DNA of 9,356 bases from a virus (taxonomy: Duplodnaviria > Heunggongvirae > Uroviricota > Caudoviricetes), in the IMG/VR virus record IMGVR_UViG_2778261065_000005. One strand, written 5' to 3'. The notes beneath the pieces were generated by a model. That model saw nothing but the letters and a program-made list of their open reading frames with translations, made no database searches and was not told the origin of the DNA. A program made the translations under genes and the position numbers. This document shows positions 1 to 9,356 of the stretch, piece by piece. Numbering within the stretch: the stretch's first letter is position 1; every line of letters starts with the position of its first letter.

Positions 1-9
1 TATTAAGAC

Positions 10-29
10 TATCACTTATTTAAGTGATA
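10..29. promoter_or_regulatory. 20-bp perfect palindrome TATCACTTATTTAAGTGATA; candidate operator for a dimeric DNA-binding protein
   Basis: Read directly: 9-bp arms with a 2-nt centre, perfectly self-complementary. It lies in non-coding DNA about 130 bp beyond the operon terminator. No flanking U-tract on either strand, so it is unlikely to be a terminator. Confidence 0.3.
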
Positions 30-160
30 CTGGTTGTCTGGAGATTCAGGGGGCCAGTCTACTGACTGCACTGATTAACTACGTCACCAGCTCACAGATG
101 TCTATGCAGGATCTGCAAACACATCTCGACTATTGTGCCGAACAACTACGAAAACAAACC

Positions 161-188
161 ACATAAAGAAAAGGCCGCGAAAGCGGCC
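161..188 (-). terminator. Rho-independent terminator ending the minus-strand operon
   Basis: GC-rich hairpin GGCCGC-GAAA-GCGGCC at 173-188 (6-bp stem, GAAA loop). On the minus strand it is followed by a U-rich run (plus-strand acataaagaaaa at 161-172). No T-tract follows it on the plus strand, so it is directional for the minus-strand transcript. Confidence 0.6.
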
Positions 189-202
189 TGTGACATGTCA
201 CA
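189..202. repeat. 14-bp perfect palindrome TGTGACATGTCACA abutting the terminator hairpin
   Basis: Read directly: positions 189-202 are self-complementary. Could be a second stem-loop of a compound terminator or a protein-binding site. Confidence 0.4.
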
Positions 203-208
203 CTCACG

Positions 209-349
209 TTATGACAAGCCTATGTATCCTGCTACACCAGATAATATCAAAATAACTGCAACAGCAAATTCGCCATCGTCAATGATACATTTACGGTTCA
301 TAACGCCAAGTGCAACAAGCGCAAACACAACAAGAATAAAAGCAATCAT
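209..349 (-). CDS. Candidate small hydrophobic (two-segment membrane) protein, 46 aa: MIAFILVVFALVALGVMNRKCIIDDGEFAVAVILILSGVAGYIGLS
   Basis: Hand-translated; too short for the supplied track. ATG at 347-349 is preceded on the minus strand by TAAGGATGAGAA (AGGA with a 6-nt spacer), directly after the TAA of the 824-aa gene and upstream of the terminator. Two hydrophobic stretches flank a short polar loop (NRKCIIDDGEF). Wobble positions are more AT-rich than in the large genes, so it is either acquired or non-coding. Confidence 0.35.
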   Translation of the reverse strand: MIAFILVVFALVALGVMNRKCIIDDGEFAVAVILILSGVAGYIGLS

Positions 350-358
350 TTCTCATCC

Positions 359-2833
359 TTATTGCGGAGTGACATCCTGTGGTCGCCACCAGTATGTCTG
401 GTTAAACTCTTTCTTCGAACGTTGCTCCATTTTACGCAAATAGCCTGGTGAAAAATACTCCTGCATCTGGTTAAAGATCATGTGATCGAGAGCCGCCTTC
501 AAGTACCAGAGATTCGCACCTGGCATCAGCCCCTTCCCCAGCTTAACCAGATCACCACCAGTCTGCTCATTCTTCCCTTCCACAGCATTTAACGGTATGC
601 CCTGAGCAATCTTCACTACGTCATCAACCAGACCAGCTACCGGGCCAAGCATCGACGCCAGCGCGCCGCTTCCGTACCTAGTGTGATCTGACAATAAAAA
701 GTCACCGTAAAGGCCAAGACCACCACCTTTCAGTAGAGCACCAAGCCAAAATTTAGCAGCATCTTCTCCTGTCATCTCGCGATGATTACGACCAGACGCA
801 AGGTCGTTAAGTTGCTGAGACAAAGCGCCAAGAATGGTCGTGCTGGCAATAAACGTCGCAATATATGCCGCACGCCCACCAGCAGACGGCATACCCATAG
901 CGCGTGACCAGTGACGCATAACCACCGAGATAGGGAACGATTTAAACAGGAAAACACTTCTCGTTAATTCACCTTTCCATGTTCCACGCTGAATACCAGA
1001 ACCGGTTATCAGTTGCTCACGTGCTCCCGGTGTAATAACAGCCATATCAACTTCTTCAGTTACGGCACCGAGCAGTTTACGCATTGCCTCAAATTTCACG
1101 CGTTCAGGCTCACCAAGATGTTTAACTGCTGAATCAGGGATACGCATAATGCTTTCCGGTGTCAGCATCGTATTATTACCGTTCCCCCAGTCCTCCTGTT
1201 GCGCCAGCTTCCATACGCTCCAGTCTGTGTCAGTAATCCCTTTGCTTTTCAGGATACGAAAATCAGAGTCATCGAGGCTACGAAGGTCTGGTGTCCGTGA
1301 CACTACTTCTCCCAGGCTTCCCATCATGGTTACGCCATAGGCGCGCTTGTGCGCATCTGACCATGCTGTAAGCCCACTGGCACGCATTACCGCCGTTGCA
1401 GCCCAACGAGACACTGACGGCCCCATATTATCCATCGCCCAGCGGTTAACGCTGCCAAGTAGAGATTCCATCGCCAGACCAGCGCGGCGCGCCCGCGCAA
1501 GCTCAGTACGGTTCGTTGGGTCCATAGCTTCAAGCTGGTTGCGGAATAACTGGTTCATTGGAAGGTTGGTCACCTTCGCAGACAGATACATGGTTCCAAG
1601 ATCAGAGAACGATGACAGCAACGCGGATCCGAGTCTGCTGGCAACCAGCCAGTTGCGGATATTGTCAGACCATCGCGCGATGTGCGGATTTGCTACAGGC
1701 TGTGTCTTTCCGGAAATAAAGTTGTACAGATTCTCTGTGTTGTTCGCCAGCCGCTCGACTTTACCGGTTTTACTCGGGTTAGCTGTTGCCGTTTCTGCCT
1801 TCACCTGATCAAGAAGAGAGCGGAAAACATGATCGGGGTTTGGGCCATATGTTTCCACCAGTGCAATATCTTTACTGATACCTTCCAGGTGACCGACCAT
1901 GATTTCCCATAGAGAGCGATCGCCATAAAGTTGCTGATATTGCAGATAGGAATCTGCATCTTTGAAATGTATCTGTCGTGATGCATTACCACGGTTAGCA
2001 CGTGCGCCGGAAATTCGCATTCCGGTATCAGTAAGCTTATTCAGCCCACCAGTAGCGATCGTGTTATAAGCCTCTCCAAGAAATGCAGACAACTCGGCAT
2101 CGTTCATCAGTTGTCCATCGGCTCGGATATAATATTTGCGATCCAGCTTACCTATAACATCGCTAACCCACTTATCCTTTGATACCGCCCCAACCTTTTC
2201 CATAGAATGATGTTGAGGGATCCCCCAGTTTTCGAGATAGCCAATGTCCCCACCAGCATCATTAAACCGGCGGCGCAGCAGCTCTGTAACTTCTCTCCAC
2301 GCCTTAGCACCTTTTCTTGCTTTAGCATTGCCAGTATTTTGCCCCCGCATTTCATATACCAGGTCACGTACGCCCGCTTCATCTTCAAACAGACCAAAAA
2401 AGCGAGGATCAACTGCTTCGAATGCCTCCTGCAATTGACTCAATGCATAATCACGGGTGGCTTTTGTTCTGGATTCAACAGAGAGGAAATTAGATTTACC
2501 GTCTGCATTAAAAGCTATAGTACGGTTAAGAGCGCCAAGTTTCCCATCAGCCCCTTGATAGCTATTGATAAATTTATCCAATCTCTGACGTGCAGCTATA
2601 GTGAGAGCCACACGACGTTTCTTTAATGCCGCTTCTCGCTGTAATTCTTCAGATGCCAATTGTGCTGCACGATACAGCCGCTCTGACTCGGAAAGTTGTC
2701 GCCACGACATAGGGTCATCACGAGCAATGGAGCGCATATTGCGATAAATGCGGTCTTCAATGTTCTGTATTTCTCGCGCCGTTAACGTGCGCTGCGCCGC
2801 CTGCTGGACCGCTTGTATACATTCCTGTCTCAT
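359..2833 (-). CDS. Large internal virion / ejection protein (824 aa)
   Basis: ATG at 2831-2833 with GAGAGG upstream, 5 nt after the stop of the 600-aa gene. Long uninterrupted frame ending at TAA 359-361. Gly-rich hydrophobic segments near the C-terminus (AAYIATFIASTTILGALS, FWLGALLKGGGLGLYGDFLL, GSGALASMLGPVAGLV). Last large gene of the operon. Confidence 0.8.
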   Translation of the reverse strand: MRQECIQAVQQAAQRTLTAREIQNIEDRIYRNMRSIARDDPMSWRQLSESERLYRAAQLASEELQREAALKKRRVALTIAARQRLDKFINSYQGADGKLGALNRTIAFNADGKSNFLSVESRTKATRDYALSQLQEAFEAVDPRFFGLFEDEAGVRDLVYEMRGQNTGNAKARKGAKAWREVTELLRRRFNDAGGDIGYLENWGIPQHHSMEKVGAVSKDKWVSDVIGKLDRKYYIRADGQLMNDAELSAFLGEAYNTIATGGLNKLTDTGMRISGARANRGNASRQIHFKDADSYLQYQQLYGDRSLWEIMVGHLEGISKDIALVETYGPNPDHVFRSLLDQVKAETATANPSKTGKVERLANNTENLYNFISGKTQPVANPHIARWSDNIRNWLVASRLGSALLSSFSDLGTMYLSAKVTNLPMNQLFRNQLEAMDPTNRTELARARRAGLAMESLLGSVNRWAMDNMGPSVSRWAATAVMRASGLTAWSDAHKRAYGVTMMGSLGEVVSRTPDLRSLDDSDFRILKSKGITDTDWSVWKLAQQEDWGNGNNTMLTPESIMRIPDSAVKHLGEPERVKFEAMRKLLGAVTEEVDMAVITPGAREQLITGSGIQRGTWKGELTRSVFLFKSFPISVVMRHWSRAMGMPSAGGRAAYIATFIASTTILGALSQQLNDLASGRNHREMTGEDAAKFWLGALLKGGGLGLYGDFLLSDHTRYGSGALASMLGPVAGLVDDVVKIAQGIPLNAVEGKNEQTGGDLVKLGKGLMPGANLWYLKAALDHMIFNQMQEYFSPGYLRKMEQRSKKEFNQTYWWRPQDVTPQ

Positions 2834-2838
2834 TTAAT

Positions 2839-4641
2839 TTAACCTCTCAAGAAACACGCCACAGCAACATCAAACAGGCTGGAATCCTGTATTGCCTGCT
2901 CACTTTCCCTGTTAGCTTCATCCAGTACTTCACGCGCACTGCGCGATTGTGGATTACCATCATCATCCAGCACGGTGATTATCATGTCAGGTGATTCAAG
3001 CAGCGAGTCTTCAGCTATACGCAGATCAATATCTCCTGCCGGATCTGCCATCATTTTTTGTTCTGTCTGTTGCAATATCTTACCGGGCTCAAAAGGAGCT
3101 ACTTCGTCTGGCGTCCTGACCTCTGCTGTTTTATAGAATGAAACAGCCTGAGCATTAAGTTCACTTTCTGCCTGCTGTCGCCGTGCCAGTTCTGCTCGAG
3201 CTTCAAAAAACTGACCTCCAGGCTCGTGCGGTGCCAACGCGTTACGGGAAAATTCCAGGCGTTCTTGTGCCTGCCGGATTCGTTGATCAATATCACGAAG
3301 TCTGGCCTGTTTATCTGATCGAGCACGAGACAAAGCTTTACCGCTACCGGTTGGCTCTTCTGCAAGAATTTGTGCACGCTGTTCAGTGAGATTTTCAATA
3401 ATTCGTTGGCTATTAGCGATTTCAGACTGGTAAACCTGTCTATCTCCACGCGGCAAAAGCTGCGCGGCCTGTTCTTCAAGCAACCGATTTTCTATAGCGC
3501 GCGCCGTTACTCCATCATCTACAGATGACAGAGCCTCATTAACTGCCTGAGACAGCAGACTCTTGCGCCCAGGAATTTCACTGAAAGATGCAGACTCAAC
3601 AATGCTGGCAACGTCTACAGGTCTCCCCTGGCTAACATCAGACATAGCTTTTCGCAGAGCCTGAATGTGAGAATTGCGCGAAAGCACGTTGATCGGCACG
3701 CCGGGCGCAATATCAATTTCAGCATGATGAGCGGCATTCGCCGCCAGTGCAGCATCAATATCAACTGGTGAAAAATTTGGTGCGCTTGTAGACTCGCCGC
3801 GAGAGTTAATAAATCTGCCGACACCACCAAACGCCACCCCAAGAACAGCATCAATAGCAATTGCCTGTCGATCCAACACATCATACTGGTTAGCCATTTC
3901 GCTATAGCCACCATCACGAAGCGTTTTTGCAGTAAGCCCACGCTGTGCCATACCGAACGCAATATTTGTACCTGCGGCATAGGCAATATCTGGCGTTGCA
4001 CTTACTGCTGTTGCTGCGGCGCGTCGCACTGAACTTTCACCCGTCCGCGCAAGCTGAGCCGCCACACCTTCCGCCAGCGCACCACCAGCACGTAACCCGA
4101 GGCTCATAGGGATCATTGTTCCGGCACCAGCAGTAATACCCTGCACTAATCCCGCTTCCTGCGCCGTCCTGAAATCAACACCCTGTGCTGTCAGCCGTTC
4201 AAACTCAGAAAAACCCTGTAGCGAAGTTACCGCCGCAGCACCTCCGGCCGGACCACCGAGCGTTGTACCGATAACAGCCTGCCCGCCCATATCGAACAAC
4301 CCATAAAGAACCTGCCCGGCGGTTCCGGTTGTCGCGGCATCAGGCGTCAGCCGCTTAACCTGCTGCTCTGCTAGTTTTCTCTGCTCGGCAATGTATGAAA
4401 CTGAAGTGTCATTGAGCGAGGTGTTTTCGTTAACAAACTGAGCAATCGGGGATACGATTTTATCCATCCCTGCCCAGAGCAACTGATCTGGCTTTGCCAC
4501 CAGCCCGGAGTACAAACCAGACAATGCCGCTCCTACAGCATTGTCGAAAAAACCAACATCGCTGTTAAAGCCAGCTGGATTTGATGCTGCTTCGTCAAGC
4601 TGCTGATTCTGGTTTACTGGATTAAGGCCAAAGTAACTCAT
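2839..4641 (-). CDS. Internal virion / ejection protein (600 aa) with Gly/Ala-rich hydrophobic segments and a charged C-terminal helical region
   Basis: ATG at 4639-4641 in an ATGA overlap with the upstream stop; GGAG about 10 nt upstream. The N-terminal half has repeated small-residue hydrophobic stretches (GGQAVIGTTLGGPAGGAAAV, ITAGAGTMIPMSLGLRAGGALAEGVAAQLA, IAIDAVLGVAFGGVG) typical of membrane-inserting segments. The C-terminal third is E/R/Q-rich and likely coiled coil. Confidence 0.8.
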   Translation of the reverse strand: MSYFGLNPVNQNQQLDEAASNPAGFNSDVGFFDNAVGAALSGLYSGLVAKPDQLLWAGMDKIVSPIAQFVNENTSLNDTSVSYIAEQRKLAEQQVKRLTPDAATTGTAGQVLYGLFDMGGQAVIGTTLGGPAGGAAAVTSLQGFSEFERLTAQGVDFRTAQEAGLVQGITAGAGTMIPMSLGLRAGGALAEGVAAQLARTGESSVRRAAATAVSATPDIAYAAGTNIAFGMAQRGLTAKTLRDGGYSEMANQYDVLDRQAIAIDAVLGVAFGGVGRFINSRGESTSAPNFSPVDIDAALAANAAHHAEIDIAPGVPINVLSRNSHIQALRKAMSDVSQGRPVDVASIVESASFSEIPGRKSLLSQAVNEALSSVDDGVTARAIENRLLEEQAAQLLPRGDRQVYQSEIANSQRIIENLTEQRAQILAEEPTGSGKALSRARSDKQARLRDIDQRIRQAQERLEFSRNALAPHEPGGQFFEARAELARRQQAESELNAQAVSFYKTAEVRTPDEVAPFEPGKILQQTEQKMMADPAGDIDLRIAEDSLLESPDMIITVLDDDGNPQSRSAREVLDEANRESEQAIQDSSLFDVAVACFLRG

Positions 4642-7151
4642 TGCGGAATATCTCCGGAGAATCTCTGACGCTTCTGTGTCAGATCAAGAACAACGGGAGA
4701 ACCATCATCTTTTAGCAGATAACCAGTACCAAGTTTCACCAGGTACTGACTATCGCCGTAACTTTGCAAACCATACTGACCAGGCGGTGTTTTTATCCCT
4801 GTGCCAACAACTTGTTCATTCCAAGCCTGATTAACCTGCTTATCGAATTGCTCTGCAGACATTCCCCACGGCAAAAGAACATTCCCCATTCCGTTATAGT
4901 CATGCACGCCACCTGTAGCTACGTTAACAGCCTGTTTCCAGATATCATTGTCAATTTCGCCTGATACCACGCCTTTTTTCGCCATCACACCAGCGTAATA
5001 GTCCTTTGCGATCTCGTATGCCATTGATGCCCCCTGAGCATCACCAGCAAATGCATCCTTCACCATGTCAGAAAACTCAAGGCGGAGATCAGCATCTTTA
5101 GGCATCGGAATACCTTTCGCGTCATCAGTACCTTTACGAGCCGCCGCGCCAGCAAGAATTGTCTGCGCAGCGGTTTCAGGAGACACGGAAACATCCGGAT
5201 TAAACCAGTTTTTTTCTGCCAAAATACCACCTGGCTTATCCATCAGTATCCCGGCAACGGCAGCAGATGGAGCGTTGGCACTGATCTGCTGTAGTGCTGA
5301 CATATACACCTGCCCACCACCAGTGCTCTGCCTGATGGTATCGAGATATGCTGCCTGTTGGGAAACGGGCGCATCACGAAAGAAAACACCGATCTGATTG
5401 GCCTCGTCTTTGGAAAAGAACGTCAGTGGAGTGCCATATGACTTAGCAAGGTCACTGACCTGAGCAGCACGCAAGGCAACGCTCTGTCCAAAGTTATCCT
5501 TATTGCTCATGTCGATAGGCTTTGCCTGTCCGGCGGCAAGAGAGAACTGTACAGGATCAGCCTGTCGCTGCTTTATCACCTGACTTGCAGCCGACACAAC
5601 GTTGTCATAAAGAGCGGCTCGTGCCGCATAACCCTCCCCTGTCTCACCAGTATCCGGGCGTAATTGCTCAACATATGCTGTAATGCTGCTTGTCGGCATG
5701 TTGCGGAAAGAGCCTATATACTGTCCGGCGATTTGCGTATTTCTGAACTCGGTATATCGCAGTTTTCCTTCTCTGACTCCATAAGCTGCAATAAAATCAG
5801 CCTCACCAGGTGGGTTAGGAAATTCAACGCCACGCATATACGCAGCTGTCGCATCGCGAACCTGGCTGTCAATCATCGTTTTATATTCAGCCTGCTGCTG
5901 CCGACGCAGTTGATCCGCCTGTCGCATAAAACTTGCCTGCGCCTCAGGAGATGCCGCATCGAATGCTGCATTACCGGTATAGCGTTTGGTGTTGGTTGGA
6001 ATTGTTGATAAACCAAGTGCTGCACTGACACCAGCAGTTAACTGCTGATCACTGTATGGCTGGCTACCGTTCTCATGATGGATAATGGCTGCACAAAGCG
6101 CCTTCAGGGTATCAGGATTAGATGCATCGAGAGGCTCATCAGCAGAAACGCCAAGTTGTTCGCACACTGCTTTGATATACGACATAGTGTCATTTTTATC
6201 AGTAGGCGGTGCCCAGCGATTAATTATCTCGCTGACGGTATCAATACCCTGCCTCTGATACGACATCAGGTTCCGCCCTAATGCACGAATCCCGTGTTCA
6301 GGTGTTTCGAATTTAGCAAATCGACCATCATCACCGGTCTGGCCTACCCACGGATTAGTTTTGCTGTATTCGAGATTTCCTGGGTTATTGTTGCGTATGC
6401 CACGGGCACGCTCGGAAGAGTCACTATCTGCTACAGCACGGCGAGCTCCAGCAGCAGTATCGCTTAACTCGCCATTACTTTGGATAAATGAGATCGCATT
6501 GTTTGCCGACCACTGGGACAATGCTGCATCAGCAACCTTCTCTTTAAACTCGATTTTCTTGGCCTGTATTTGCTCGTCGCTCCAGCCATGTGCAGCACCG
6601 TACTCCTCAATTTGCTGGAAAGTTTGCTTATTAGCCAATACGTATGCGGCATTGTCGCCATACAATGCTGCGGCATTTTTACCATTGTTCAGCAGCGTCG
6701 CCTGAAACTGACCTTCTTCGTAGGCATTTATTTGCCCTATCTCGTGCCGCCCGGCCTGCGTAGTGAACTGAATACGCTGCTGCTGCGCCTGCTGCATGAA
6801 AGCATTACGAGCCTGTTCATCCGGCAGCGACATAGCCAGTTGTTCGATCTGAGCATCAAACTGCTGCGTATACTCCTGACCTTTTCCAATAGCATTTTTC
6901 CCTTTCAGGTTAAGCAAACCTGTTTCAGGGTTATTCAGCAGATCGCTGCCTGTCTGACTGAGTTTAAGGGATGCCTCCTGAGCCAGAGCGATATTGGCAC
7001 GCTGTTTTGCCTGACCAAAAACATCAATTGTCTCTGCCCCTGCCCGAACAAAAGCATCACCAATACCTGGCTGAGAAAACGTCTGCAAGCCTGCTGACTG
7101 AACTCCACGGCTCTCAACCTGACGTCCGGATACTGTTGGTACGACTGGCAT
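4638..7151 (-). CDS. Large internal virion / ejection protein (837 aa), with a conserved-looking central block
   Basis: Long open frame. The track ORF (862 aa) starts at GTG 7226 and would overlap the upstream gene by 76 nt. The internal ATG at 7149-7151 has a strong Shine-Dalgarno (GGAGGA, 5-nt spacer) and forms a TAATG junction with the upstream stop, so I call the start at 7151. Stop TGA overlaps the next ATG (ATGA). Q-rich helical N-terminal region; distinctive block RGIRNNNPGNLEYSKTNPWVGQ...HHENG. Confidence 0.8.
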   Translation of the reverse strand: MPVVPTVSGRQVESRGVQSAGLQTFSQPGIGDAFVRAGAETIDVFGQAKQRANIALAQEASLKLSQTGSDLLNNPETGLLNLKGKNAIGKGQEYTQQFDAQIEQLAMSLPDEQARNAFMQQAQQQRIQFTTQAGRHEIGQINAYEEGQFQATLLNNGKNAAALYGDNAAYVLANKQTFQQIEEYGAAHGWSDEQIQAKKIEFKEKVADAALSQWSANNAISFIQSNGELSDTAAGARRAVADSDSSERARGIRNNNPGNLEYSKTNPWVGQTGDDGRFAKFETPEHGIRALGRNLMSYQRQGIDTVSEIINRWAPPTDKNDTMSYIKAVCEQLGVSADEPLDASNPDTLKALCAAIIHHENGSQPYSDQQLTAGVSAALGLSTIPTNTKRYTGNAAFDAASPEAQASFMRQADQLRRQQQAEYKTMIDSQVRDATAAYMRGVEFPNPPGEADFIAAYGVREGKLRYTEFRNTQIAGQYIGSFRNMPTSSITAYVEQLRPDTGETGEGYAARAALYDNVVSAASQVIKQRQADPVQFSLAAGQAKPIDMSNKDNFGQSVALRAAQVSDLAKSYGTPLTFFSKDEANQIGVFFRDAPVSQQAAYLDTIRQSTGGGQVYMSALQQISANAPSAAVAGILMDKPGGILAEKNWFNPDVSVSPETAAQTILAGAAARKGTDDAKGIPMPKDADLRLEFSDMVKDAFAGDAQGASMAYEIAKDYYAGVMAKKGVVSGEIDNDIWKQAVNVATGGVHDYNGMGNVLLPWGMSAEQFDKQVNQAWNEQVVGTGIKTPPGQYGLQSYGDSQYLVKLGTGYLLKDDGSPVVLDLTQKRQRFSGDIPQ

Positions 7152-7696
7152 TATAATCCTCCAGGTAATCTGGTTCCTGCTGCTGCCCCGATTGGCGCAG
7201 GAGTGCTTTGAGTAAACGGACTCCACGTCCCACCAAACATCTGGTACGCACCGTATGCCTTCAGAGGCGCAGTGAGCAATGTTGTTGCTGCTCCCACATT
7301 CCCCTGTTTACGGGCTGAACTGGCTTCTGCTTTATAGTTAGCAGCCTGAACCTGATAACCGTAAGCCTCGCGTTGCGCGTTATTCACCGTCGTCAGCGAA
7401 TCAAGGGCGCCAAACTGAGCAGTGTCACCAAATATATCCAGCGCGTTACCTGTAGATAAATCGGCGCCGGTCGCCCCCATTGTCGCCGCCTGTGTACCAA
7501 GCCGCTGTCGGGTCTCTCTGCGCCGTTGCTCAGCTTCAGCGTTACCCCTATTTATTGCATCATTTGCCTGAGCTGTGGCTATATCTGCGTTCGCTTCTGC
7601 AACCTTCGAGGCATACTTTCCCTGTTGGTACTGGGTGTATGCCTGAATGCCACTCATGGCGAGCATTGCGCCACCAGCAATAACCGGATCGCACAT
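7151..7696 (-). CDS. Ala/Gln/Gly-rich small internal virion (core) protein, 181 aa
   Basis: ATG at 7694-7696 preceded by GGAGAG. Low-complexity A/Q/G-rich composition beginning MC..., of similar length and position to the small internal virion protein (T7 gp14-type) of podoviruses. Stop TAA at 7151-7153 overlaps the next ATG (TAATG). Assignment is from composition and synteny, not a verified alignment. Confidence 0.7.
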   Translation of the reverse strand: MCDPVIAGGAMLAMSGIQAYTQYQQGKYASKVAEANADIATAQANDAINRGNAEAEQRRRETRQRLGTQAATMGATGADLSTGNALDIFGDTAQFGALDSLTTVNNAQREAYGYQVQAANYKAEASSARKQGNVGAATTLLTAPLKAYGAYQMFGGTWSPFTQSTPAPIGAAAGTRLPGGL

Positions 7697-8160
7697 TATT
7701 TTCTCTCCATGTGAAATCTGTGGAAATTAAGACCAAGAGCACCATAAGGCGCGGCTTCTTCAAGCCTGAATCCAAGCCAGTGGAGCCATGCTTTGGCAAC
7801 ATGGTTTCGCTCGTCGACGTAGTTTTCCAGGCGCGGATAAACTGCCAGCATCTGCCGCAATACAGGGTGGCAGTGGCGAAGAAATGTCTTCTGATATTTT
7901 TCAATACGGCTGGTCCCGACCAGCCAGGGCGTACCATTGCCACCGATCATTGACGCCGGAGATACACCAAACATGGTTACCAGTTCTCCGTTCGCGAACC
8001 CTGACCAGGCCATAGTCGCAGTGCGCAGACCAACACGCAGCGCATCTTCGGTAGTCATCAGCGATACCGCATACAGTTCGTCAATATCAGCCTGACGAAC
8101 ATCCGGCAAAATCATCTGAAGATGCTCTTCGGTTGCGGGAATAATTTGAACACCAATCAT
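7696..8160 (-). CDS. Phage virion-associated protein of unknown function (154 aa)
   Basis: ATG at 8158-8160 preceded by GGGGGA with a 5-nt spacer. Start overlaps the upstream stop (TGATG) and the stop TAA overlaps the downstream ATG (TAATG), indicating translational coupling. Size and position match the small protein that precedes core proteins in podovirus clusters. Function not assignable by eye. Confidence 0.75.
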   Translation of the reverse strand: MIGVQIIPATEEHLQMILPDVRQADIDELYAVSLMTTEDALRVGLRTATMAWSGFANGELVTMFGVSPASMIGGNGTPWLVGTSRIEKYQKTFLRHCHPVLRQMLAVYPRLENYVDERNHVAKAWLHWLGFRLEEAAPYGALGLNFHRFHMERK

Positions 8161-9356
8161 CAGAATCCCCCAACAGTAAGGCGAGGAATAACGGCAAGAA
8201 CAGACAGCGGCAACGGATCAAGCTGACGGATTTTTACACGTCCGTTTTTGCCCCAGTTACTGTCCAGTTTCACTTCTACTTTTCCGGTAGCATCATCAAC
8301 AGGATCATCGTAGAACTCGAATTCACGCTGTGGATATTCGTACCATTTACCGCCGGGCGTAGTCGCCCAGATGCCGCGGCTGGCATTCACAACCAGAGTA
8401 ACGGATGGGATCACCTGTTTTTTGTCCAGCAGCGTTTCCTGTCCGTTAATGTTGATATCCAGTGTTTCGAATTCAGCAGTTATTGGCAGGCCGATGTGCA
8501 CTACAGCCCCCGGAGATTCCAGCGTGACGGCACCTCCGGAAACCACTTTCTGTGGTTCCACGTTCGCATCAGAGAGAATGTTTACGGTCTGGCCTTCAAG
8601 ATGAGACAGGCCTCCAAATGTCCGGCGCGCCATCTGCCAGTTCGTGGTGGCCACATTCCTGAGGGATGGCGGGACGTTCCTGTTAGCACGAACCACTACA
8701 GCGGTATTGCTGGTTACAGAAATAATGTCGCAACGTAATTCTTTTGACACTTCATCGCCAGTATCAGGATCAGTTCCGGTATAAGGGAATTGTAGTTGCG
8801 CACCGACATCACTACTGGTGAAGTACGCACCACCAGAAATACTGATTGTATATTCCACGCGGTAATCCCATTCACCAGAACCACCAGTGATGGTCATCGT
8901 TCTGTCAGACGTATTTCTTCCATCATAGCTAAGGCCAGAATCAACAAAGAAAGCATCTTCATCGCTGGTAAATAAACGGCTGGACAGCCGCTCGATGTAT
9001 CTCACTGTTTGCCCGTTAACGGTTCGGTTAACGACGAAATACACCGCATCTTCATTTCCTTCGCTGATACTGCATGTGCTTTCATATTTTCCGGTACTGG
9101 ACTGTGGTGCCCATGCAAAAACCTGTTGATCACGCAAATAGGTCATCACCAGTAATTTACCGTCATCACGAATGCAGAAGGCGCTGGAGTAAGGGACAAT
9201 AGAGAAGCACCAGTCAACAATGCTGTGCTTCTGAAAAAGATGATTGGCAAGGATAGTAAGGTCGTTCCCCTGATAGCCGTCAACATCGAATGAGTAGATA
9301 CTGTTATGGCCTGCAAGTTTTTTTCTACCCTGGTTTCCCAGATTGCAGGCATGCCA
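8160..9356 (-). CDS. Phage virion structural protein, partial (5' end lies beyond the window; at least 398 codons here). Possibly a tail hub/nozzle-type protein by position.
   Basis: The frame of the listed 329-aa ORF (8160..9149) stays open with no stop codon up to the window edge at 9356, and reads as ordinary protein (WHACNLGNQGRKKLAGHNSIYSFDVDGYQGNDLTILANHLFQKHSIVDW...). The track ORF begins at GTG 9149 only because there is no start codon further upstream inside the window. Stop TGA at 8160-8162 overlaps the next ATG (TGATG). Product is a guess from position immediately upstream of the core-protein genes. Confidence 0.7.
   Translation of the reverse strand, partial: WHACNLGNQGRKKLAGHNSIYSFDVDGYQGNDLTILANHLFQKHSIVDWCFSIVPYSSAFCIRDDGKLLVMTYLRDQQVFAWAPQSSTGKYESTCSISEGNEDAVYFVVNRTVNGQTVRYIERLSSRLFTSDEDAFFVDSGLSYDGRNTSDRTMTITGGSGEWDYRVEYTISISGGAYFTSSDVGAQLQFPYTGTDPDTGDEVSKELRCDIISVTSNTAVVVRANRNVPPSLRNVATTNWQMARRTFGGLSHLEGQTVNILSDANVEPQKVVSGGAVTLESPGAVVHIGLPITAEFETLDININGQETLLDKKQVIPSVTLVVNASRGIWATTPGGKWYEYPQREFEFYDDPVDDATGKVEVKLDSNWGKNGRVKIRQLDPLPLSVLAVIPRLTVGGF

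Follow-up and report, generated by a model that had tools for sequence, protein, structure and literature searches.

The inverted repeat at positions 10 to 29 of a 9,356-nucleotide stretch of viral DNA (IMG/VR record IMGVR_UViG_2778261065_000005; here called the window) is very probably an operator/promoter region through which an IS2 copy regulates itself, located at the inner edge of the element's left terminal inverted repeat (IRL); this copy is inserted in a gene of a phiV10/epsilon15-like prophage. The dyad is a known part of the left end of IS2, described since the 1990s, and not a phage or host regulatory site. An earlier note on this DNA had proposed a generic binding site for a dimeric regulator and had left the insertion sequence end unrecognized; the site is one of element-internal autoregulation. 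Annotating this end as IS2 explains the palindrome, shows that the homologue of phiV10 gp24 is disrupted, and shows that the site plays no role in the control of the phage structural operon; the feature itself was already known and has little importance beyond its correct annotation. What our comparison of relatives adds is mildly new, namely, the three-half-site framing, the covariation across the IS2 group, the lack of conservation of the central heptamer, and the AA/TT flip of the center. This comparative result is a modest refinement that concerns the coupling of end recognition to autoregulation in the IS2 group.

The left end of IS2 in an epsilon15-like prophage

The reverse complement of window positions 1 to 61 is the first 61 bp of the 1,331-bp IS2, TAGACTGGCCCCCTGAATCTCCAGACAACCAGTATCACTTAAATAAGTGATAGTCTTAATA, with 61/61 identity to annotated copies. 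The element end is read on the minus strand, from IS2 bp 61 at window position 1 to IS2 bp 1 at position 61, with the window cut inside the element; IS2 position n corresponds to window position 62-n, and the dyad occupies IS2 bp 33 to 52. Read from position 61 to position 1, the window begins with 5'-TAGACTGGCCCC, the start of the IS2 IRL, and the copies used for comparison carry the RefSeq label "IS3-like element IS2 family transposase." At IS2 bp 32 the window copy has G (CCAGTATCAC), a common variant of the canonical A. The IRL, which is 42 bp long and is laid out as a cleavage domain and a protein-binding domain (PMC3299598), fills window positions 20 to 61 on the minus strand (IS2 bp 1 to 42) and is the substrate for transposase binding (PMC3299598). 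On sequence-identical copies elsewhere, the IRL (42 bp) and its imperfect counterpart at the right end, the IRR (41 bp), align as published. Used as a query, window bases 1 to 60 were found at 19,636 places in 4,582 of 5,426 complete Escherichia coli genomes (16,150 places on chromosomes and 3,486 on plasmids; the median genome has 3 copies and the richest has 41), and the flanks differ among the window and two further copies (L001 and L002), which marks a dispersed element. In two annotated IS2 examples, the match directly adjoins interrupted host genes and lies 30 nt upstream of a CDS annotated "programmed frameshift." End sequence, dispersal, and a boundary with a corresponding empty site, which are the features of IS2 membership that can be tested within the window, are all present. 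Near-identical IS2 sequences (94 to 99% OrfA identity) were also seen on contigs of 558 to 1,543 bp, that is, of approximately IS length, in assemblies of Streptosporangium, Paenisporosarcina, Lamprocystis, and Brevibacterium (L041, L044, L049, and L067); these are most likely E. coli-derived contamination and not genuine host range.

On the other side of the boundary lies phage DNA. A megablast search of the whole window against phage genomes gave 98% identity to Escherichia phage phiV10 and its relatives (genus Uetakevirus, epsilon15-like podoviruses), over positions 61 to 9297 only. Positions 62 to 166 (plus strand) hold a 3' gene remnant of 34 codons and a stop, belonging to an 85-amino-acid hypothetical gene like those for phiV10 gp24 and epsilon15 gp19; its translation, LTALINYVTSSQMSMQDLQTHLDYCAEQLRKQTT followed by the stop, is the C-terminal 34 residues of the 85-amino-acid PhiV10p24. 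The intact 85-amino-acid gene is present in two E. coli prophages (L089 and L090), both identical to the window over positions 61 to 230. The empty site in L089 reads GCCGA up to the boundary and continues with ACTGACTGC, an intact phage gene where the window has IS2, and the comparison with phiV10 likewise gives a sharp boundary and an uninterrupted target site. The empty site and the boundary at 61/62 thus show that this phage gene was the target of an IS2 insertion. IS2 and the empty-site phage sequence have base 61 in common. IS2 duplicates 5 bp of its target, and the phage bases that abut the IS2 terminus, CTGAC at positions 62 to 66 (no strand assigned), are predicted to form one copy of this duplication; the other IS end lies outside the window. 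A 40-mer across the IS2/phage junction (window positions 43 to 82) had no match in genome_contigs, viral_contigs, or metagenome_contigs, and the junction was absent from the complete E. coli genomes, in which the best places span positions 61 to 400 only. An exact-protein look-up of the neighboring 824-amino-acid gene returned many prophages, with loci that were only uninterrupted or differently arranged.

The repeat had been placed by the earlier note in a region beyond an operon terminator. A GC-rich hairpin does lie at positions 172 to 189 (no strand assigned; its stem has 7 pairs, 6 of them GC, and the minus strand carries a T-run), between convergent phage genes, and it is terminator-like and separate from the IS2 feature, but that description missed both the phage gene remnant at 62 to 166 and the insertion sequence at 1 to 61. 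The site at 10 to 29 takes no part in regulating the window's phage genes.

Several observations concern the prophage itself. A related prophage in E. coli MFDS1019527 (L092, 2799 to 5340) is 100% identical to the window over positions 61 to 400 and carries an independent IS2 insertion inside its homologue of the window's 824-amino-acid virion gene; this prophage type has therefore been struck by IS2 more than once. Near positions 166 to 170, the window is without a segment of ~1 kb that is present in phiV10 (L003, 2607 to 3640) and that holds a Bro-N domain antirepressor-like gene and a small open reading frame (ORF) between the gp24 and gp21 homologues. A still larger insert with Bro-N is found in L087 and L088, and L089 and L090 have the short form seen in the window; the position is a variable moron slot between convergent genes. 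At the right edge, phage homology ends at 9297, and the last 59 bases (9298 to 9356) are the end of a multicopy element, which was found at 30 places in only three E. coli genomes (6 to 18 copies each), the matches adjoining a frameshifted "IS110 family transposase" CDS. The phage gene at this edge (ORF 9146 to 9352, minus strand) is presumably also disrupted. Because an IS2 end lies at one edge and an IS110-family end at the other, the data suggest that the window is a whole short-read contig, broken at repeats and bounded by two different IS ends.

The dyad and the promoter that it overlaps

The sequence at 10 to 29 (TATCACTTATTTAAGTGATA) had been taken for a perfect 20-bp palindrome, of which about 0.01 would be expected by chance. 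Compared with its own reverse complement (TATCACTTAAATAAGTGATA), it mismatches at positions 19 and 20 (T, T). A repeat lies exactly there, but it is a quasi-palindrome, TATCACTTA-TT-TAAGTGATA (no strand assigned), with 9-bp arms at 10 to 18 (TATCACTTA) and 21 to 29 (TAAGTGATA) around a noncomplementary TT center, and it cannot be extended outward. The quoted expectation holds for perfect 10+10 palindromes (0.0089 per window) but is too low for the repeat that is actually present, with 0.036 repeats with 9-bp arms expected per window at one fixed spacer and ~0.25 at spacers of 0 to 6. In 300 windows simulated from a first-order Markov model of the window, repeats with arms of at least 9 bp and spacers of 0 to 6 arose in 58, with a mean of 0.28. 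Since ~0.28 such repeats are expected per window, the repeat at 10 to 29 is unremarkable by statistics alone. Two other short palindromes lie within phage structural genes, at 6032 to 6047 (CAGCAGTTAACTGCTG; 8+0+8) and 7908 to 7925 (GGCTGGTC-CC-GACCAGCC; 8+2+8), a number about as high as chance predicts. Nonetheless, the repeat at 10 to 29 is a real feature: it is fixed in a multicopy element and is maintained through compensatory changes in relatives.

Read in the orientation of IS2, the dyad is TATCACTTA-AA-TAAGTGATA, and we propose it as an operator for an OrfA dimer. The outer half-site, TATCACTTA (window positions 21 to 29, minus strand; IS2 bp 33 to 41), is the innermost conserved block of the IRL (element III). 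The inner half-site, the same 9-mer on the plus strand of the window (positions 10 to 18; IS2 bp 44 to 52), is inverted relative to the outer one and reaches across the TG motif of PIRL into its -10 hexamer, of which it covers the first two bases. This weak, extended -10 promoter (TGATAGTCT; window positions 6 to 14, minus strand; IS2 bp 48 to 56) fires leftward into orfA/orfAB, and the dyad overlaps it while straddling the inner edge of the 42-bp IRL. PIRL lies just inside the IRL, the "TGAT of base pairs 48 to 51" of Lewis et al. (2012; PMC3299598) being its first four bases, and it is also present in an oligonucleotide shown in PMC3219604. The published docking site of OrfA (InsA), TAAATAA (window positions 16 to 22, minus strand; IS2 bp 40 to 46) (PMC3299598), is centered on the dyad axis (bp 42/43). 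The published coordinates of PIRL, the docking site, and the IRL match the window sequence exactly, and 15 of 16 distinct relatives have an unchanged TAGTCT hexamer. A generic σ70 scan for -35/-10 pairs did not report PIRL, because the scan requires a -35 hexamer and PIRL has none. A full-text literature search with the dyad sequence returned a match only in an unrelated paper on phage resistance in Shigella.

OrfA has an N-terminal helix-turn-helix (HTH) and a coiled-coil, leucine zipper-like segment at residues 73 to 100 (Lewis et al. 2011; PMC3219604), and its dimerization was mapped to residues 58 to 105 by Lei and Hu, as cited in PMC3219604. Translated from an IS2 copy, OrfA matches Pfam family PF01527 (HTH_Tnp_1) with an E value of 1.8e-19, and in intact copies the orfA start, at IS2 bp 92, lies 30 nt past the left edge of the window, which ends at bp 61. 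The transposase OrfAB has the same N terminus as OrfA and protects IRL bp 39 to 48 (PMC3299598). This protection was strong in footprints obtained with OrfAB-GFP preparations (PMC3299598), and OrfA was present besides OrfAB in the footprinting preparations (PMC3219604, PMC3299598). In PMC3299598, which cites Hu et al. (1994) and Lei and Hu (1997), TAAATAA is said to serve the repressor function of the 14-kDa OrfA; the OrfA site named there is limited to the 7- to 10-bp center (TAAATAA, bp 39 to 48) and does not extend over all 20 bp of the dyad. That OrfA binds and represses at this position is thus taken from the literature, by way of papers that cite Hu et al. (1994) and Lei and Hu (1997).

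Much of what the earlier note had proposed from the letters is borne out by these data. A dimeric regulator site was expected, and the center of the dyad is the published docking site of OrfA/InsA (PMC3299598), a protein that dimerizes (PMC3219604). Control of something to the left was expected, and the dyad overlaps a promoter that fires leftward out of the window; an HTH regulator gene was to be sought just left of the edge, which is where orfA starts in intact IS2 copies. The proposal was to be given up if the palindrome were unique, not conserved, and without a regulator gene or promoter nearby; it is multicopy and conserved, PIRL overlaps it, and orfA lies nearby in intact copies.

Taken together, the published and the present data suggest the following model. 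According to the literature, PIRL drives orfA/orfAB leftward, away from the phage genes, and OrfA (InsA) binds at the TAAATAA core on the dyad axis and represses PIRL. We infer that an OrfA dimer could place one HTH on each TATCACTTA arm and that its occupancy could block the access of RNA polymerase to the TG/-10 element. The result would be negative feedback on OrfA/OrfAB synthesis, together with competition with the transposase at the inner IRL, and the lone half-site in the IRR may serve transposase binding only.

Half-sites across IS2 and its relatives

The 9-mer TATCACTTA occurs exactly three times in the 1,331-bp IS2, at 33 to 41 (plus strand), 44 to 52 (minus strand), and 1292 to 1300 (minus strand), the last being the mirror position in the IRR, 32 to 40 from the end. 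The sequence of the outer arm is therefore shared by both terminal repeats as their conserved innermost block, and the inverted inner copy is unique to the left end. We compared 80 loci with OrfA relatives at 81 to 99% identity and three plasmid loci at 77 to 83%. Within IS2 proper, two forms are common, and the center alone tells them apart: it reads AA in the canonical form, to which the window belongs, and TT in the other. The TT form amounts to the 20-mer in inverted orientation (IS2 bp 42 to 43; L006 and about 38 other loci) and predominates in Shigella flexneri SFBU1023 and E. coli ECMA0423; that two neighboring bases are changed at the tip of a quasi-palindrome suggests mutagenesis by template switching (loop inversion). 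In the relatives from Klebsiella, Enterobacter, Pantoea, and Providencia, the arms persist with a single mismatch and the center is TAAGTT or TAAATT; in Klebsiella and Enterobacter it is changed to TAAGTTA. Conservation thus extends to the arms but not to the published TAAATAA heptamer. This pattern in Klebsiella and Enterobacter fits recognition through the arms and conflicts with the center as the specific contact.

More diverged elements have changed the arms themselves. The Rahnella element reads TCACTTA-a-TAAGTGA. The Aeromonas elements (82% OrfA identity) carry CCTCTTAA-c-TTAAGAGG directly abutting TAGTCT, with TCCCGCTTAG in the IRR, and a lineage at 77% identity carries CTCTTA-aaa-TAAGAG(G), with TCTCTCTTA in the IRR; neither has kept the TG motif (GAGGTAGTCT). 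All three copies of the half-site therefore change together in these two lineages, and the symmetry is retained. In an alignment of the arms only, drawn from nine distinct lineages and anchored on CTTA and TAAG, paired cells made up 85%, whereas slid registers gave 37 to 56% and column shuffles gave 79% (with 1 of 500 as high), and the covariation score was 0.262, compared to 0.141 in shuffles (again, 1 of 500 as high). Two pairs, IS2 35:50 and 37:48, are changed on both sides. Dyad symmetry with compensatory change, as expected of a dimer site, is thus found among the relatives, although the independent lineages are few, as are the independent events behind the covariation.

Only in IS2 proper do the two outermost pairs hold, because the TA of the right arm opens the -10 hexamer and is thereby fixed; the conserved core therefore comprises ~7 bp per arm. 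The spacer that separates the CTTA core from the TAAG core is 1 in Rahnella, 2 in IS2, and 3 in Aeromonas and the 77% lineage; such a range would be awkward for a rigid dimer and would require a flexible one. The OrfA proteins of IS2 and of the Aeromonas element have ~22 differences, 7 of them in residues 34 to 53 (the predicted HTH), which is consistent with altered specificity, without proving it. Conservation of the right arm could come partly from promoter constraint (the TG and the TA of the -10 element), and conservation of the left arm could come from the constraint of transposase binding.

Two plasmid-borne elements deserve mention in their own right. A hybrid IS on the Klebsiella pneumoniae plasmid pKP037-1 (L086, ~1410 to 2740) encodes an OrfA with 83% identity to IS2 OrfA and combines a left end of the IS2 type, including the canonical dyad, with the IRR half-site TCTCTCTTA of the 77% lineage; it looks like a recombinant of two IS2-group elements with mismatched end half-sites. 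On plasmid pTR1 (L084, ~1390 to 2750), a 77% IS2-group element lies ~300 bp from the quinolone resistance gene qnrS1, and the 77% lineage accounts for 681 of the best 5,000 plasmid records (60 to 80% identity band).

These observations can be joined into a broader reading, which we put forward tentatively, giving it slightly less than an even chance. The whole dyad, and not the short TAAATAA center, would be the true OrfA operator across the IS2 subgroup, made by placing a third, inverted half-site over the promoter; the three half-sites (IRL, inner copy, and IRR) would coevolve with the recognition helix of OrfA/OrfAB; and the AA-to-TT flip would stem from template switching and would be functionally neutral because the site would be read symmetrically. 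If this is true, each lineage of the IS2 group would have a private operator/terminal-repeat code.

Alternative explanations and known systems

The alternative that survives best, though we consider it unlikely, is that the dyad is only a binding sequence for the transposase OrfAB plus a promoter, its symmetry being a by-product, and that no OrfA-dimer operator exists. In favor of it, the left arm also occurs in the IRR, where there is no partner arm, OrfAB-GFP preparations protect IRL bp 39 to 48 (PMC3299598), and the TA and TG of the right arm are promoter bases, the TA being invariant in all relatives even where it does not pair. However, in the Aeromonas and 77% lineages, which are without the TG, the right arm still mirrors the changed left arm (35:50 and 37:48), and because promoter constraint alone predicts no such mirrored change of the right arm, this explanation is disfavored. 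In addition, the preparations used for the footprints contained OrfA as well as OrfAB, and OrfA binding and repression are reported at this very position (PMC3299598).

Far less probable still is that the palindrome acts as a nucleic acid hairpin, either as an RNA stem-loop in transcripts that enter IS2 from outside or, during transposition, as a cruciform or single-strand hairpin of an intermediate, and not as a protein site. The predicted RNA fold has an 8-bp stem and a 4-nt loop (-7.6 kcal/mol; z = -3.3 relative to shuffles), the compensatory changes fit a stem equally well, and the AA/TT flip of the center in many copies resembles loop inversion. Against this, the repeat lies upstream of the -10 hexamer and thus outside the PIRL transcript, and it is ~40 nt from the ribosome-binding site, with no sequestration. 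A hairpin also leaves the third, unpaired half-site in the IRR unexplained, although it covaries with the other two, and published footprints show protein protection here (PMC3299598). Its AU-rich stem has no T-run and is absent from the terminator-like sites; an intrinsic terminator was rejected as a candidate on the same features, there being no T-run on either strand.

The two remaining alternatives are each negligible in our estimate. One of them takes the site for a lambdoid-type operator that belongs to the prophage or the host, as suggested by a half-site that starts with TATCAC and by the prophage origin of the window. The lambda operator consensus half-site does begin with TATCAC, and lambdoid operators are 17 bp long (8+1+8) and lie in tandem triplets between cI and cro. 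The site, however, is internal to IS2, with phage homology starting no earlier than 61 to 62; the host prophage is a Uetakevirus, an epsilon15-like podovirus and not a lambdoid phage; the architecture is 9+2+9, not 8+1+8; the window has no further copies, its two 9-mers with one mismatch equaling the chance expectation of 2.0; and the uninterrupted phage locus is without the sequence, so that the empty-site comparison refutes this explanation. The resemblance to lambdoid operators pointed out in the earlier note is therefore coincidental. The other, a functionless chance inverted repeat, draws on the ~0.28 repeats of this class expected in a window of this size and composition, but the sequence is identical in thousands of IS2 copies, its symmetry survives sequence change in three diverged lineages, and it coincides with experimentally protected bases (PMC3299598).

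With the dyad read as the autoregulatory operator/promoter region of IS2, its closest known system is IS2 itself (IS3 family, IS2 group), with which the window agrees in sequence (61/61) and position, TAAATAA, TGATAGTCT, and the 42-bp IRL all lying at their published coordinates; the difference is that the literature has a central site of 7 to 10 bp, whereas the 20-bp dyad framing and the covariation are added here. The OR and OL operators of lambdoid phages (half-site TATCACCGC) share with the IS2 dyad the TATCAC hexamer, the dyad symmetry, and a dimeric HTH repressor that overlaps a promoter, yet they are tandem triplets of 17-bp sites, in contrast to the single 9+2+9 site found here in an insertion sequence. 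The regulatory logic is the same as in the autoregulation of IS1 by InsA and in that of the IS30/IS911 type, in which an HTH protein of the element, sharing the DNA-binding domain of the transposase, represses the transposase promoter at the left end; the binding partner there is a small N-terminal protein or the N terminus of the transposase, and its target is the terminal repeat overlapping that promoter. The parallel between IS2 OrfA and the 17-kDa derivative of IS30 has been drawn before (PMC3299598), and the same source describes the OrfA of IS911 as being without this repressor function (PMC3299598). These elements belong to different families and have different sequences, and in IS2 the promoter stands at the inner edge of the IRL, as an extended -10 promoter with no -35 element.
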